33,099 nt of DNA from a virus. Location of the stretch: the UHGV virus genome UHGV-0076257; one strand, given 5' to 3'. Shown piece after piece: positions 12,605 to 29,744 of this stretch. Position 1 is the stretch's first letter. Each line of letters starts with the position of its first letter. A program made the position numbers and the translations under genes. The notes under the pieces are model-generated. The model worked only from the letters and a program-made list of their open reading frames with translations, did no database searches and was not told the DNA's origin.

Positions 12605-12928
12605 ATGAAGATGCCAGAAAAACATGACCTGTTAGCCGCCATTCTCGCGGCAAAGGAACAAGGCATCGGGGCAATCCTTGCGTTTGCAATGGCGTACCTT
12701 CGCGGCAGATATAATGGCGGTGCGTTTACAAAAACAGTAATCGACGCAACGATGTGCGCCATCATCGCCTGGTTCATTCGTGACCTTCTCGACTTCGCCG
12801 GACTAAGTAGCAACCTCGCTTATATAACGAGCGTGTTCATCGGCTATATCGGTACTGACTCGATTGGTTCGCTTATCAAACGCTTCGCTGCTAAAAAAGC
12901 CGGAGTAGAAGATGGTGGAAATCAATAA
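12605..12928 (+). CDS. S: Holin, lambda S type (class I)
   Basis: 107 aa beginning [41 protein letters not shown]..., including the dual-start Met-Lys-Met motif; appears near-identical to lambda S. Confidence 0.9.
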
Positions 12929-13388
12929 TCAACGTAAGGCGTTCCTCGATATGCTGGCGTGGTCAGAGGGAACAGATAACGGACGTCAGAAAACCAGAAA
13001 TCATGGTTATGACGTCATTGTAGGTGGTGAGCTATTCACTGATTACTCCGATCACCCTCGCAAACTTGCCACGCTAAACCCCAAACTCAAATCAACAGCC
13101 GCCGGACGTTACCAACTTCTTTCCCGTTGGTGGGATGCCTACCGTAAGCAGCTTGGCCTGAAAGACTTCTCTCCTAAAAGCCAGGATGCTGTTGCATTGC
13201 AGCAGATTAAGGAGCGTGGCGCTTTGCCGATGATTGATCGCGGTGATATCCGTCAGGCTATCGACCGTTGCAGCAATATATGGGCTTCACTGCCGGGCGC
13301 TGGTTATGGTCAGTTCGAGCATAAGGCTGACAGTCTGATTGCAAAATTCAAAGAAGCTGGCGGAACGGTCAGAGAGATTGAGGTATGA
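12912..13388 (+). CDS. R: Endolysin, lambda R type (lytic transglycosylase)
   Basis: 158 aa, [39 protein letters not shown]..., matching lambda R from memory; overlaps the S stop. Confidence 0.9.
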
Positions 13389-13852
13389 GCAGAGTAACCG
13401 CGATTATCTCCGCTCTGGTTATCTGCATCATCGTTTGCCTGTCATGGGCTGTTAATCACTACCGTGATAACGCCATCGCCTACAAAGAACAGCGAGATAA
13501 AAAAGTCAGTGAGCTGAAGCAGGCGGCCGCCACCATTACTGACATGCAGCAGCGCCAGCGTACTGCTGATGCACTCGATGCTAAATACACGAAGGAGTTA
13601 GCTGATGCGAAAGCTGAAAATGATGCTCTTCGGCGCAAGCTTGATAATGGTGGCAGGGTGCTCGTCAAAGGAAAATGCCCTGTGCCATCCTCAGCCGAAA
13701 CCTCCAGCGCCTCCGGCATGGGCAATGATGCCACCGTCGAACTCTCTCCAGTTGCTGGACGAAACGTTCTCGGTGTCCGGGACGGAATTATCCGCGACCA
13801 AACAGCACTGAGAACGCTTCAGGAGTACATCAGGACGCAATGCCTTCGATGA
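13385..13852 (+). CDS. Rz: Rz i-spanin
   Basis: 155 aa with N-terminal transmembrane helix ([23 protein letters not shown]) and coiled coil; the N-terminal half is lambda-like and the C-terminal half diverges. Confidence 0.85.
13605..13811 (+). CDS. Rz1: Rz1 o-spanin lipoprotein (embedded in Rz, +1 frame)
   Basis: [22 protein letters not shown]... has a lipobox (VAGC) and a Pro-rich mature part; nested wholly inside Rz as in lambda. Confidence 0.75.
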
Positions 13853-14014
13853 TAGCGATAATTTTACTCATCATCCTTCACATCTGGCTCTGTAGACAGG
13901 GTGGTGATCACTTCTGGAGTGAATCCAGATTAAATATCTCATTGCTGATGCTTGATATTGAGCATCTGGCGCGCGGTAAGGGGCTGCGTTGAGATAAGAG
14001 CCAGTCATCACAAA

Positions 14015-14039
14015 ACCAGGATTTAGCCTCGCATTCGCG
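14015..14039 (+). terminator. Intrinsic terminator downstream of the lysis cassette
   Basis: AGCCTCGC-ATTC-GCGGGGCT hairpin (one G-U pair) followed by TTTTTT. Confidence 0.5.
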
Positions 14040-14195
14040 GGGCTTTTTTACATCTGCAGTAAACCGCGCATCGCAGCGCGTAACAATCCCGAGTCTTTCA
14101 GAAAGCTGAGCCTGAGAACTGCCGTATATGGTGGCGACCATCTCGGGGCGGCTTTTCTGTGCGAACAGGCTCATCTTTCTAAAAGGTAAGACGCT

Positions 14196-14717
14196 ATGAA
14201 TATCGTTCCACTGAATTACAAAGGCGAACCTATCCGCTTCAATACTGATGGCTGGATTAATGCCACTGATATTGCAAAACGTTTCGGGAAGCGTCTGGAT
14301 CACTGGTTGTCCAATGCTGAAACTCTCGAATACGTTAGAGCTCTGGATGAGGTTTATTCAGGTGAGCCATCGAAAATTCTACATACCCGTGATTCCGGGT
14401 ATGTAAAAACAAGCAAGGCACGAAAGGACAGGGGCGGCGGAACATGGCTGCATCCAAAGTTATCAGTTGCCTTTGCAAGATGGTGCGATCCGAAATTCTC
14501 CGTATGGTGCGACCTGCACATTGATAGTCTGCTTCGCGGTGAACTGACTGAGCAGCAGAAATATGAGCAAGCATGTCGCATTCGCGATGACCGGAAATCA
14601 AAAGCCAGCAATGGGGCAAGAGAGATGGCTCGCTGGCGATGGGATAAGCCGGTTATTGAAGCAAATGTTGAGTACTGGCGCGAGCAACTGCAGTTGACTC
14701 TCGATATCGCGTGCTGA
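14196..14717 (+). CDS. KilA-N domain protein
   Basis: 173 aa; N-terminal segment (…GEPIRFNTDGWINATDIAKRFGKRLDHWLSNAETLEY…) fits the KilA-N/APSES-type DNA-binding fold pattern. Confidence 0.65.
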   Translation: MNIVPLNYKGEPIRFNTDGWINATDIAKRFGKRLDHWLSNAETLEYVRALDEVYSGEPSKILHTRDSGYVKTSKARKDRGGGTWLHPKLSVAFARWCDPKFSVWCDLHIDSLLRGELTEQQKYEQACRIRDDRKSKASNGAREMARWRWDKPVIEANVEYWREQLQLTLDIAC

Positions 14718-15074
14718 TGGCAAACGCAAAACTGCGTTATCGGAAAAATCAAAGCATTACGAGAACTGAGCAACGGCTATCCATTACAAAGCCCATCTAC
14801 GGATGGGCTTGATAATGAAACCGGAATTTATTCTGGGCAACCAGTTACGGCAGTACAGCGAAACAACCCAAGCCAGAAAGTGGGGAAATAACACTGGCAG
14901 CCACTGAAAGATGAACCTCCTGCCTTATGGCAAAAAAGATTCTTTGTGGTGGCGGACTGATGGAAAGACATCGGTTATTGCAGAGACCATTCAATGAGTG
15001 GTCTCGACAATGGCTTATACCCTACACGGGATAACTTAACTGATATCCCTTTTAACGGATAAACGGAGCCAACA

Positions 15075-15317
15075 ATGGCAGAGATTATTCCCATGACTGA
15101 AGAACAGAAATTCCAGTTAGAGATTTACAAGCTGGTCATGAACCAGAACGCAGCTGCAGAGGAAGCATTTCAGTTCATTGGCACTGACGAACTGAAGCTT
15201 GAGCTATTCAAAATTCACTTCCAGTCAGGCGGCGCTAATTCAGATATCACGACCCGCACTATCGAAGCGGTGCGTAAATCGAAGGAAGCGTTAGACCTGT
15301 TCACCACCGGAGCATAA
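15075..15317 (+). CDS. Hypothetical protein (80 aa) upstream of the terminase genes
   Basis: Complete ORF with GGAG ribosome-binding site; no family recognised. Confidence 0.5.
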   Translation: MAEIIPMTEEQKFQLEIYKLVMNQNAAAEEAFQFIGTDELKLELFKIHFQSGGANSDITTRTIEAVRKSKEALDLFTTGA

Positions 15318-15319
15318 AC

Positions 15320-15760
15320 ATGGCGCGCCCAACAAAGTATCAAGAGGCGTATGCCGAACAGGCACGCAAACTGTGCTTGCTGGGCTACACCGATGCAGAG
15401 CTTGCTGATTTCTTCGAAGTCAGTGAGTCAACTATTAACAAGTGGAAGCTTGATTATCCTGAGTTTTCGGAGTCCATAAAAAAGGGTAAGGCCGTCGCTG
15501 ATGCAGAAGTTAGTGACCGTCTTTATCAACGCGCTATGGGCTTCGTGGCTCCAGACATCGATATTCGTGTTATTGAAAACAGAATTGTCGAAACTCCTCT
15601 TGAGAAGTATTACCCGCCTGATACAACAGCTGCCATCTTCTGGCTTAAGAACCGACAGAAGGATAAATGGCGCGACAAGGTTGATCACGAGCTAACAGGC
15701 AAAGACGGCGGCGCAATCCAGATTGAAACATCACCGATGAGCACTCTATTCGGAAAATGA
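15320..15760 (+). CDS. Terminase small subunit (Sf6 gp1-like)
   Basis: 146 aa with N-terminal HTH-like region; C-terminus TGKDGGAIQIETSPMSTLFGK matches what I recall of the Sf6 gp1 C-terminus; immediately upstream of the large terminase. Confidence 0.8.
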   Translation: MARPTKYQEAYAEQARKLCLLGYTDAELADFFEVSESTINKWKLDYPEFSESIKKGKAVADAEVSDRLYQRAMGFVAPDIDIRVIENRIVETPLEKYYPPDTTAAIFWLKNRQKDKWRDKVDHELTGKDGGAIQIETSPMSTLFGK

Positions 15761-17169
15761 CCTCGATTAATCCTATCTTTGAACCGTTCATTGAGGCGCA
15801 TCGCTACAAAGTCGCCAAAGGCGGTCGAGGTAGCGGTAAGTCATGGGCAATTGCTAGGCTGCTTGTTGAAGCGGCGCGTCGGCAGCCTGTGCGCATACTT
15901 TGCGCTCGTGAGCTGCAAAACAGTATCAGCGATTCGGTAATTCGGTTGCTTGAAGACACCATAGAGCGGGAAGGGTATTCGGCTGAGTTTGAAATTCAGC
16001 GTTCAATGATTCGTCATCTAGGAACGAATGCTGAATTCATGTTCTACGGCATCAAAAACAACCCGACGAAGATTAAATCGCTCGAAGGTATTGATATCTG
16101 CTGGGTGGAAGAAGCGGAAGCGGTAACGAAGGAATCATGGGATATCCTGATACCAACCATCCGCAAGCCGTTTTCCGAAATATGGGTGAGCTTTAACCCG
16201 AAGAACATACTCGACGATACCTATCAGCGATTCGTCGTAAATCCTCCCGATGATATTTGTCTGCTGACGGTGAACTACACCGACAACCCGCACTTTCCTG
16301 AAGTTCTCCGTCTGGAGATGGAAGAGTGCAAACGCAGAAATCCGACACTGTATCGTCATATCTGGCTTGGTGAGCCAGTAAGCGCAAGTGATATGGCAAT
16401 CATCAAACGTGAATGGCTTGAAGCCGCAACCGATGTGCACAAGAAACTCGGATGGAAAGCGAAAGGCGCTGTTGTTTCTGCACATGACCCGTCAGATACA
16501 GGGCCAGATGCTAAAGGTTACGCATCGCGTCACGGTTCGGTGGTTAAGCGCATTGCCGAAGGTCTGCTGATGGACATCAACGAGGGTGCTGACTGGGCTA
16601 CTTCGCTGGCGATTGAAGACGGTGCTGACCATTACCTGTGGGATGGTGATGGTGTTGGTGCCGGGCTACGCAGACAGACAACGGAAGCATTCTCCGGTAA
16701 GAAAATCACCGCCACGATGTTTAAGGGCAGCGAATCGCCATTCGATGAAGATGCGCCTTATCAGGCCGGAGCATGGGCTGATGAAGTCGTACATGGCGAC
16801 AACGTTCGCACTATTGGCGATGTATTCCGCAATAAGCGAGCGCAATTCTATTACGCGCTGGCTGACAGGCTGTATCTGACATATCGGGCGGTTGTTCACG
16901 GTGAGTATGCAGACCCAGACGACATGCTGAGTTTCGACAAAGAAGCGATAGGCGAGAAGATGCTGGAGAAGCTGTTTGCAGAACTTACGCAGATTCAGCG
17001 CAAATTCAATAACAACGGGAAGCTGGAGCTTATGACTAAGGTCGAAATGAAGCAGAAGCTCGGTATTCCATCTCCTAACCTGGCTGATGCGCTGATGATG
17101 TGTATGCATTGCCCGGCATTGGTCCGCGAAGAAACAGAAATATACGTTCCCTCATCCTCCGGTTGGTAA
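15757..17169 (+). CDS. Terminase large subunit
   Basis: 470 aa with Walker A (VAKGGRGSGKSWAI) near the N-terminus and acidic nuclease-domain residues; length matches Sf6/P22-like TerL. Confidence 0.9.
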   Translation: MTSINPIFEPFIEAHRYKVAKGGRGSGKSWAIARLLVEAARRQPVRILCARELQNSISDSVIRLLEDTIEREGYSAEFEIQRSMIRHLGTNAEFMFYGIKNNPTKIKSLEGIDICWVEEAEAVTKESWDILIPTIRKPFSEIWVSFNPKNILDDTYQRFVVNPPDDICLLTVNYTDNPHFPEVLRLEMEECKRRNPTLYRHIWLGEPVSASDMAIIKREWLEAATDVHKKLGWKAKGAVVSAHDPSDTGPDAKGYASRHGSVVKRIAEGLLMDINEGADWATSLAIEDGADHYLWDGDGVGAGLRRQTTEAFSGKKITATMFKGSESPFDEDAPYQAGAWADEVVHGDNVRTIGDVFRNKRAQFYYALADRLYLTYRAVVHGEYADPDDMLSFDKEAIGEKMLEKLFAELTQIQRKFNNNGKLELMTKVEMKQKLGIPSPNLADALMMCMHCPALVREETEIYVPSSSGW

Positions 17170-29186: not shown

Positions 29187-29552
29187 ATGAAAAAAGTTAA
29201 CATTGGAAACGTACCAAAGATGCTCGTTCCGCTCTTTGAGAGCGGTACAATTGTGTTTTGTAGAGACTTTCCAGAATGGCAACGCCTGCATCAAAAACTT
29301 GGTGTGGACGTGCAGGACTCGGATGCCAACGGAGCGTCTCATACAATGAGCAGCGAGAATGGTGTTTTGCATGTGATAGGCGTGTTCAATGGCAAACTAT
29401 CTACTATTGCCCATGAGTGCGCTCACATGGCATTCGATATCTGCTCAAGGGTAGGTGTTGATGTTGAACCAGGAAGAGCCAACGAGACTTACTGCTACTT
29501 AATGAGCAGGCTTGTTGAGTTCTGCGAGCGACATATCAAAAAGCCGGAGTGA
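29187..29552 (+). CDS. Small HExxH-motif protein (putative zincin-like), 121 aa
   Basis: Track ORF 29148..29552 trimmed to the ATG at 29187, which follows AGGA; contains TIAHECAHMAFD (HExxH). No family confidently recognised. Confidence 0.45.
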   Translation: MKKVNIGNVPKMLVPLFESGTIVFCRDFPEWQRLHQKLGVDVQDSDANGASHTMSSENGVLHVIGVFNGKLSTIAHECAHMAFDICSRVGVDVEPGRANETYCYLMSRLVEFCERHIKKPE

Positions 29553-29564
29553 CCGGCTTGATTA

Positions 29565-29744
29565 TTACTTTTTGCTGTCTGGAGTTCGCTTATCCAATAC
29601 CCAGCCATGACCTGGCTTTGTTGTTGGCGGAAGCCTTTCGTTGTCCTTGACGGTGGCAAAATTGTCTTTCTTACCGCCGCGTGGGCCAACTTCTTGGTAT
29701 ATTCCGCCGTTTTTTCCTGTGTTTTCACCTGGTTTTTTCGCCAT
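29565..29744 (-). CDS. Hypothetical small basic protein (59 aa)
   Basis: Track ORF 29565..29759 trimmed to the Met at 29744, which follows GAGGT; MAKKPGENTGKNGGIYQEVGPRGGKKDNF..., Gly/Lys/Pro-rich. Confidence 0.4.
   Translation of the reverse strand: MAKKPGENTGKNGGIYQEVGPRGGKKDNFATVKDNERLPPTTKPGHGWVLDKRTPDSKK

Follow-up and report, generated by a model that had tools for sequence, protein, structure and literature searches.

In phage T7, the RNase III hairpins (R1.1 and its relatives) have an upper stem of about 10 bp set on a lower stem, with an internal loop between the two, and the upstream RNA keeps the hairpin, which protects its 3' end. REPs stabilise the upstream mRNA against 3' exonucleases inside operons. 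A promoterless integron cassette carries its attC site at the 3' end and in its own orientation; such a site combines a conserved paired base with an unpaired spacer and a stem of variable sequence. In T4-type phages, stem-loop motifs called PeSLs (promoter-early stem-loops) border variable cassettes in hyperplastic regions, and are composite terminator/promoter units (PMC2839356, PMC4122927). In the P22-like prophage BTP1, the late genes are transcribed as a single long polycistronic operon (PMC7067206), and the P22 moron pid lies on the opposite strand with a promoter and a terminator of its own (PMC3573128, PMC8835761).

We analysed a stretch of 33,099 nucleotides of the virus genome UHGV-0076257 (the window), which represents a P22-like (Lederbergvirus-type) phage or prophage, and found that the gap between its KilA-N and DUF2560 genes contains two copies of a hairpin element that belongs to a large covarying family. 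The element is apparently undescribed, since neither its sequence nor such hairpins were found described in the papers searched.

The late-operon junction and its two hairpins

The features of the region, all on the + strand, are as follows.

12605-12928, + strand, holin gene (ORF list)
12912-13388, + strand, lysozyme gene (ORF list)
13385-13852, + strand, Rz gene (ORF list)
13840-13992, + strand, Sf6 gene 65 homologue, 50 aa (ORF list)
14025-14050, + strand, canonical intrinsic terminator, AGCCTCGC-ATTC-GCGGGGCT plus a T run
14196-14717, + strand, KilA-N domain gene, 173 aa, complete (Pfam)
14718-15074, + strand, gap between KilA-N and DUF2560
14723-14738, + strand, 6-bp stem-loop, AACGCA-AAAC-TGCGTT, directly 3' of the KilA-N stop
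14782-14817, + strand, hairpin copy 1 (element 14783-14816), covariance model score 54.6 bits
14818-14846, + strand, spacer A', found after copy 1 in most phages
14847-14972, + strand, segment B, non-coding, about 95-99% conserved
14973-15015, + strand, hairpin copy 2 (core 14977-15011), covariance model score 54.5 bits
15016-15064, + strand, segment C, weak terminator-like stem
15065-15068, + strand, Shine-Dalgarno sequence GGAG
15075-15317, + strand, DUF2560 (P22 orf80) gene (Pfam)

The genes for the small terminase, the large terminase and the portal lie 3' of DUF2560, all on the + strand, and by this gene order, from holin to portal, the gap belongs to the late operon, with the lysis module on its left and the packaging module on its right. 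The gap is an internal late-operon junction at which optional accessory ("moron") cassettes stack, with KilA-N as the accessory gene 5' of hairpin copy 1 and DUF2560 as the conserved right-hand neighbour of the junction. The strong terminator at 14025-14050 is located 3' of the Sf6-gene-65-like ORF and 5' of the KilA-N cassette. The original prediction had offered, as one reading of the gap, regulatory DNA ahead of the packaging operon; this finds only loose support, in the sense of an internal junction of the late operon, but a promoter scan of the + strand from 13700 to 15500 found no sigma-70-like site, and no -35 partner stands 16-18 nt from the GATAAT hexamer. Parts of the gap DNA are present at 90-99% identity in about 200 phage records. 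Of 5426 complete E. coli genomes, 2552 (47%) likewise contain parts of it, and among the full-length matches listed, RefSeq annotation places no feature under the gap. A scan of genome contigs for DUF2560 returned seven loci only.

A perfect 9-bp hairpin, AAGCCCATC-TACG-GATGGGCTT, with no adjacent T-run on either strand had been pointed out in the gap, and both statements are correct: the hairpin occupies 14789-14810, the + strand continues with GATAATGAAACC, and the minus strand continues with TGTAATGG, which is only weakly T-rich. This hairpin is the upper stem of copy 1 (14789-14797 paired with 14802-14810, loop TACG), below which lie a CA/GA internal loop and a lower stem, C-ATTA/TAAT-G. 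Copy 2, which the original prediction did not include, is a paralogue of copy 1; in the loci L030 and L063, the matches to 14771-14817 and to 14977-15320 overlap each other, indicating that 14977-15011 resembles the hairpin region. Its lower stem, ATTG/CAAT, is lengthened by G.U and G-C pairs, and is followed by the CA/GA internal loop, the upper stem GAGACCAUU/AGUGGUCUC and the loop CAAUG. The two copies have the flanks ATTRCA and GAYAAT in common, and their stems differ by compensatory two-sided changes. Both are extended imperfect palindromes (CATTACAAAGCCCATC/GATGGGCTTGATAATG and ATTGCAGAGACCATTCA/TGAGTGGTCTCGACAAT) and GC-rich, with 5-6 G-C pairs in a stem of 9-10 bp. With their flanks, the predicted RNA folds reach -23.5 kcal/mol (z = -5.7) for copy 1 and -24.2 kcal/mol (z = -5.2) for copy 2, as against -17.4 kcal/mol for the minus strand of the latter. 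Perfect 9-bp hairpins occur at three places in the 33-kb window versus a shuffle mean of 0.6 (maximum 4), and the perfect stem of copy 1, taken alone, exceeds chance only weakly; we accept copy 1 as real because of the covarying family and the second copy at 14977-15011.

The rest of the gap consists of pieces with distributions of their own. The stem-loop at 14723-14738 is part of a 65-nt tail specific to the KilA-N cassette, and spacer A' carries a 57-58 bp insertion at 14830/14832 in some relatives. In P22 and Sf101, segment B begins immediately 3' of the rha stop codon. A structure is predicted for it, the fold of the entire gap having z = -5.7, and covariation within the segment was not detectable because divergence is too low, its sequences being 97-99% identical. 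In segment C, GGGATA(A) at 15028-15033 recurs in inverted form as TATCCC at 15044-15049, with TTTT after the second repeat; the segment is optional, being missing from a Citrobacter relative. A', B and C are non-coding spacer that travels with the junctions.

A covarying hairpin family at cassette ends

The original prediction had proposed a covariance analysis of the hairpin, and we found that pairing is indeed kept through compensatory changes. The element consists of ATTRCA, a stem of 9-10 bp, a loop, the return stem and GAYAAT, and is 34-38 nt long in total; at its base, (C)ATTRCA...GAYAAT(G), the outer ATTR and YAAT also pair, and the CA/GA internal loop is retained. Across about 200 loci the stem sequence is entirely replaced and the pairing retained, with 98-99% of cells paired. 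Related loci yielded 30 unique variants with at least five stem types, in the alignment of which 99% of cells are paired and 7 of the 13 pairs show two-sided changes, a level of covariation reached by none of 500 shuffles, with slid registers giving 28-51% pairing; because sequences within a type are closely related, such cell counts overstate the number of independent events, and the statistics ignore kinship. When changes within types were counted from canonical pairs, with wobble-to-canonical changes excluded, about seven kept the pair versus two that broke it.

A covariance model built from the 30 variants gave two hits in the window, at the two copies, the next best scoring 18.9 bits, and two hits in the whole Sf6 genome. 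It also found the element in an Stx2 phage, mEp043, FSL SP-016, ES18 and Ayreon. In a Citrobacter prophage whose DUF2560 is 45% identical, the hairpin is kept and has new compensatory pairs. No copy was found in the K-12 cryptic prophage regions DLP12 and Qin, and published K-12 RNase III maps were therefore not usable.

Since the first list of variants had been pre-filtered for pairing, we ran an independent scan of viral contigs with the pattern CCATTACA-N22-26-GATAATG, which fixes the flanks only; conservation of the flanks is thus partly imposed by the search patterns. The outcome was bimodal, with at least 8 of about 10 inner pairs in 61 of the 121 matches and 0-7 in the remainder, and this split was unchanged when Watson-Crick pairs alone were counted. 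Pairing in the scan was 98.6%, versus 73.7% with partners shuffled and 39.8% in the chance class. Altogether 32 unique true elements were recovered, among them the new stems GGGCGGT/ACTGCCC, GAGCCATCT/AGATGGCTC and GGGCATCAC/GTGGTGCTC.

Other details of the family extend the structure outward. The left and right stem bases covary (ATTG with CAAT), most variants have a U.G pair at stem position 14/25, and the base 5' of the element is C or T, with G as the base 3' of it in every context not retrieved via the GATAATG pattern. As the outer flanking bases pair, the lower stem has at least 5 bp, and often 6-8 bp. Overall, 5-8 bp of lower stem are followed by a 2x2 internal loop and 9-10 bp of upper stem, capped by a loop that differs among variants in both length and sequence. 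One variant, that of L063, resembles a chimera of types 1 and 2.

We found that the element usually begins 2-9 nt 3' of the stop codon of unrelated accessory genes, KilA-N among them. In 43 of the 61 matches, the stop of an upstream ORF of 40 or more codons lies within 9 nt of it, and in 25 of the 61 the spacing is exactly 2 nt. All three stop codons are used, and about 30 different proteins are encoded upstream, including Rha, gp49/66, the 85-aa phrog_875 protein of Stx phages, homologues of Acb2/Tad1 and DUF2560, and many of unassigned function. A major tail protein gene lies upstream of the element in one case. In multi-gene cassettes the hairpin follows the last gene only, and the next start codon lies at a variable distance of 24 to 63 nt from the element. 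Nearly all inspected contexts lie between the lysis cassette and the terminase genes, with several terminase types represented. In the window, 65 nt separate the KilA-N stop from copy 1, and 126 nt of non-coding DNA precede copy 2; by these distances neither shows the placement 2 nt after a stop.

BLAST comparison with 88 related loci revealed recurrent breakpoints at 14771-14782, 14817, 14830/14832, 14840-14847, 14972-14977, 14996, 15033 and 15061, of which the clusters at 14771-14782, 14817 and 14972-14977 coincide with hairpin edges. The same hairpin type occurs with at least 12 different flanks on the left and at least 12 on the right. The DNA from 14778 on follows an HNH/regulator/85-aa cassette in Dewey, the 85-aa ORF also in Stx2 phages, gene 65 in Sf6 and Rha in ES18. 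In other phages, cassettes such as Sf6 gene 66 (Pfam Phage_gp49_66) are inserted directly left of copy 2, the P22 pid moron adjoins copy 2 on the right, and extra genes beside 14972-14977 comprise a Huey gene labelled anti-CRISPR in its record and a 90-aa ORF in BIS08P22.

The element also has a preferred strand. It runs in the local coding direction in 43 cases and opposite to it in 2, whereas chance matches to the pattern divide 29:26. Among stem cells that are not Watson-Crick pairs, 48 are G.U versus 1 A.C. In 61 of 70 unique variants, with membership defined strand-symmetrically, the RNA fold of the + strand is the more stable (mean -13.3 versus -9.8 kcal/mol; Wilcoxon p ~1e-9, a value that is indicative only, because the variants are related). 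The G.U asymmetry, the fold stability, the co-orientation and the transcription of the operon favour a structure in the sense-strand transcript; a hairpin in sense-strand single-stranded DNA may also be compatible, G.T pairs being tolerated in folded single-stranded DNA. Of the suggestion that the gap holds a structured RNA or protein-binding site, the part concerning the hairpin is supported, through the covariation, the G.U asymmetry and the co-orientation with genes.

Possible functions of the element

Our main reading, to which we assign a probability of about one half, is that the element acts as an RNA stem-loop at cassette 3' ends, in protection or processing, and also as portable homology for cassette exchange. 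The RNA function, and that of RNase III especially, is suggested by architecture and placement. In the long late polycistronic transcript, the element would fold into a stable stem-loop that would stop exonucleases moving 3'-to-5', and/or would be cut at its internal loop by an RNase specific for double strands, for example RNase III; by an alternative route, the protected end would arise after endonucleolytic cleavage downstream. The mRNA of the upstream cassette would thereby gain a defined, protected 3' end, and its fate would be uncoupled from that of its neighbours. Because the same 35-bp sequence is present at many junctions, it would supply short homology for the swap, insertion and deletion of cassettes, through which phage or host recombination would act. 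A simple exonuclease barrier does not account for the conserved sequence of the base and for the internal loop, and this counts against the protective role in its plainest form.

The original prediction had regarded the gap as lacking a credible ORF and had raised the possibility that it is the decayed C-terminal portion of a longer KilA-N gene. The former observation stands, as the longest ORF in 14718-15074 has at most 49 codons; the 31-codon ORF starting in TGATG, to which attention had been drawn, is present at 14717-14812 and is broken by a stop codon in the relative L002. It is highly improbable, in our view, that the gap is decayed coding sequence, from KilA-N or another gene, or encodes micro-proteins, and that the hairpin is accidental. 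There are short ORFs of 30-35 codons, some of them annotated in Dewey and, as orf25, in P22, and segment B could be a relic. However, substitutions among relatives are distributed by codon phase as 14/10/12 (14847-14972) and 5/7/5 (15012-15074), that is, with no 3-base periodicity, single-base insertions/deletions occur at four places, and the frames are disrupted by variants and cassette insertions, on which grounds we rejected the small ORFs as genes. In the control gene, DUF2560, 39 of 47 variable sites are third positions, a control inflated because the loci had been chosen for identical protein. KilA-N has 173 aa in all four close relatives, and its C-terminus gives a weak, sub-threshold Pfam match that reaches the end of the profile; the gap DNA is also found in phages without KilA-N, where it follows unrelated genes. 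Full-length KilA-N in relatives and gap DNA behind unrelated genes do not support a KilA-N remnant, and the covariation of the hairpin argues against an accidental origin. We also regard as unlikely a weak terminator or attenuator, which would stop RNA polymerase unmodified by the late antiterminator and so insulate cassettes and packaging genes. Its location after gene ends would fit, the Ayreon record annotates the element as a terminator, types 1 and 3 are followed by the mildly U-rich UUGAUAAU or UUUGAUAAU, and segment C supplies a second stem with TTTT; but no U-run lies directly 3' of either stem in the window (GATAATGAAACC after copy 1, GACAATGGCTTA after copy 2), a terminator scan called neither copy, and type 2, to which copy 2 of the window belongs, is followed by GACAAUGG. 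A terminator would moreover be redundant in L002, L060 and L087, where the element lies directly 3' of a canonical GC-stem-plus-T-run terminator, and the conserved A/U-rich lower stem and the internal loop are not terminator features. In Ayreon, a GC-stem-plus-T-run sequence nearly identical to the window's terminator at 14025-14050 directly adjoins a hairpin element.

That the hairpin is primarily a DNA-level recombination site appears possible though doubtful. It would then be either a folded strand or cruciform to which a recombinase or junction nuclease binds, as in attC, or a conserved linker comparable to the T4 PeSLs or the HK620/Sf6 boundary sequences; in both versions it would owe its existence to the mobilisation of cassettes, with any RNA structure incidental. 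The mosaic joints at the hairpin edges, the many left and right neighbours of one hairpin and the chimera-like L063 variant would all be expected of such a site, as would a co-oriented position at the cassette 3' end and a layout of conserved base, unpaired spacer and covarying stem, and the G.T wobble fits folding of single-stranded DNA. A plain homology linker, however, needs no hairpin and leaves the compensatory changes and the strand asymmetry unaccounted for; for a site-specific crossover, the right end would be predicted to segregate with the downstream neighbour, whereas ATTG covaries with CAAT, and the attC consensus boxes are missing and no dedicated recombinase is linked. The 43:2 co-orientation with transcription, in turn, is a direct prediction of the RNA model. 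A special form of the DNA alternative, which we consider quite improbable, is that the hairpins are integron-like cassette-capture sites without a recognisable integron integrase, folded as sense-strand single-stranded DNA and joined at the base of the stem; a structure-specific enzyme of phage or host would then build an accessory/anti-defence array between the lysis and packaging modules. Recognition by a specific protein, with the hairpin as an RNA or DNA binding site, a translational operator or a device coupling stop and AUG, also seems improbable. The lower-stem sequence, the CA/GA internal loop and the U.G pair at 14/25 are conserved, and the last bases, AAT plus G, form an AUG; but conservation of the flanks stems partly from the search patterns, the loops are unconserved in length and sequence, and the phages that carry the element differ in regulators, terminases and virion types, with no common phage partner evident. 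The AUG opens no conserved ORF, for which reason it was rejected as a start codon, and the downstream genes have their own Shine-Dalgarno sequences and starts.

Several other candidates were set aside. A pac or cos site was rejected by inference, the element being found with Sf6-type, P22-type and HNH-associated terminases, and reading of the sequence gave no match to the consensus of an IHF site or DnaA box. The EHEC sRNAs AgvB and AsxR and STnc6030 of BTP1 are located elsewhere in the prophage. The pid terminator has a different stem, about 60 nt away on the other strand, and the hairpin lies outside the pid transcript. An Rfam 15 cmscan of 13300-16000, with E up to 5, yielded nothing relevant, its sole match being a chance-level AbsR28 on the terminator (14012-14064).

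Significance and comparison with described systems

These results explain prophage DNA that is very common yet unannotated, and identify a compact motif found where accessory cassettes end in the late operons of lambdoid phages, among many temperate phages that infect enteric bacteria. As the neighbours include an Acb2/Tad1 anti-CBASS homologue, the gp49/Sf6-66 family, Rha/KilA-N regulators and many proteins of unassigned function, the hairpin could help to find further genes for anti-defence or host takeover. If the RNA reading is true, late-gene control in P22-like and lambda-like phages would also include intercistronic processing or stabilisation; should the DNA reading be true, the element would provide a concrete sequence basis for mosaicism at the junction.

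The region of the element is a known moron insertion site of P22, the pid locus (PMC3573128, PMC8835761). Like a Rho-independent terminator, the element has a GC-rich stem after a gene end, but it is without the U-tract. It resembles the boundary sequences of lambdoid phages (bsq in the Sf6 record, NC_005344) in being a short conserved stretch at mosaic joints, although none of these is annotated at this place, and they are not defined by a hairpin or covariation. With attC it shares the conservation of structure over sequence and the single-strand preference. Unlike attC, the element is 34-38 nt rather than at least 57 nt long, its favoured strand is the sense strand, the RYYYAAC/GTTRRRY boxes are missing and the flanks are ATTRCA/GAYAAT; no integrase gene adjoins the element in any locus inspected. 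REP/BIME sequences are likewise imperfect palindromes of about 35 nt, intergenic and located after gene ends, whereas the element lacks the REP consensus, occurs as two copies per phage in one region, has no link to a RAYT transposase and is absent from the DLP12 and Qin regions of K-12.

The RNase III sites of T7 match the element in their dimensions, with about two helical turns, and likewise form intercistronic families in polycistronic RNA after coding regions; the element differs in having no sequence similarity to them, a symmetric 2x2 CA/GA loop, and hosts among phages unrelated to T7. The closest published parallel is the PeSL, which, like the element, is repeated at the borders of variable cassettes and is thought to provide points of homologous exchange between otherwise unrelated sequences. 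Unlike PeSLs, however, the element has neither a promoter-like site nor a U-run, resides in the late operon of temperate lambdoid phages, and has covariation and strand asymmetry indicative of selection on an RNA structure.

The KilA-N cassette and its upstream terminator

A strong intrinsic terminator lies at positions 14025-14050 of the window, downstream of the gene-65-like ORF. In phage Ayreon (about positions 1150-1216 of locus L087), a near-identical sequence, consisting of a GC stem plus a T run, is followed directly by ATTGCC and a hairpin element. By comparison with this arrangement, the KilA-N cassette of the window looks as if it had been inserted between terminator and hairpin. The KilA-N coding sequence itself contains a 13-pair inverted repeat, TTTTACATACCCG...CGGGTATGTAGAA (14377-14408), with a perfect 10-bp stem at its core, which was terminator-like on the minus strand in a terminator scan.

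Repeats between hairpin copy 2 and the DUF2560 gene

To the right of hairpin copy 2, GGGATAA alternates with its complement TTATCCC at positions 15015, 15028, 15044 and 15056 (block 15015-15062). The stems that these copies could form would exclude one another, and a TTTT comes after one of them. The Citrobacter relative (L100) lacks this block; in other phages (mEp043 and the loci L111, L153 and L163), the hairpin has related GGNTATCCCC motifs on its 3' side. The left arm of copy 2 (14977-14992) is similar (81%) to the opening 16 nt of DUF2560 (15075-15090), and ACAATGGC is present twice, at the right edge of copy 2 (15007-15014) and at the DUF2560 start (15072-15079). These similarities may have been left by earlier recombination at the start of DUF2560. 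In P22, an annotated gene, orf25 (L085 1650-1727, equivalent to NC_002371.2 40329-40406), starts inside the loop of the copy 2 hairpin. It is not conserved, the equivalent frame in the window being 16 codons long, and is probably not a gene.

Variant and possibly distant hairpins

One related locus (L063, 2404-2437) carries a hairpin variant, AAAGACC...GGGCTTGACAAT, in which states of types 1 and 2, two stem-sequence classes of the element, occur together; the mixture leaves two mismatches, A.G in the stem and A.C in the lower stem. The variant is either a recombinant of two element types or the product of two point mutations. Elsewhere in the window, a hairpin at 29535-29575 (AAAGCCGG-AGTGA-CCGGCTT) has flanks, ATCAAA/GATTAT, loosely like those of the element family and is followed by a T run. 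It matched the covariance model of the element weakly (12 bits), and could be either distantly related or simply an ordinary terminator.

Genes upstream of the element in other loci

In the incomplete locus L108 (IMGVR_UViG_3300025728_000383), one element, with a stem (GGGCGGT/ACTGCCC) unrelated in sequence, is located downstream of a major tail protein gene rather than of a post-lysis accessory gene. In L018 (IMGVR_UViG_3300045988_027816), the gene directly upstream of a hairpin element (gene at 1923-2207) encodes a homologue with the Acb2/Tad1 hairpin domain (Pfam PF24729, E = 3.5e-18); a known anti-defence family therefore has a homologue in the post-lysis cassette region.
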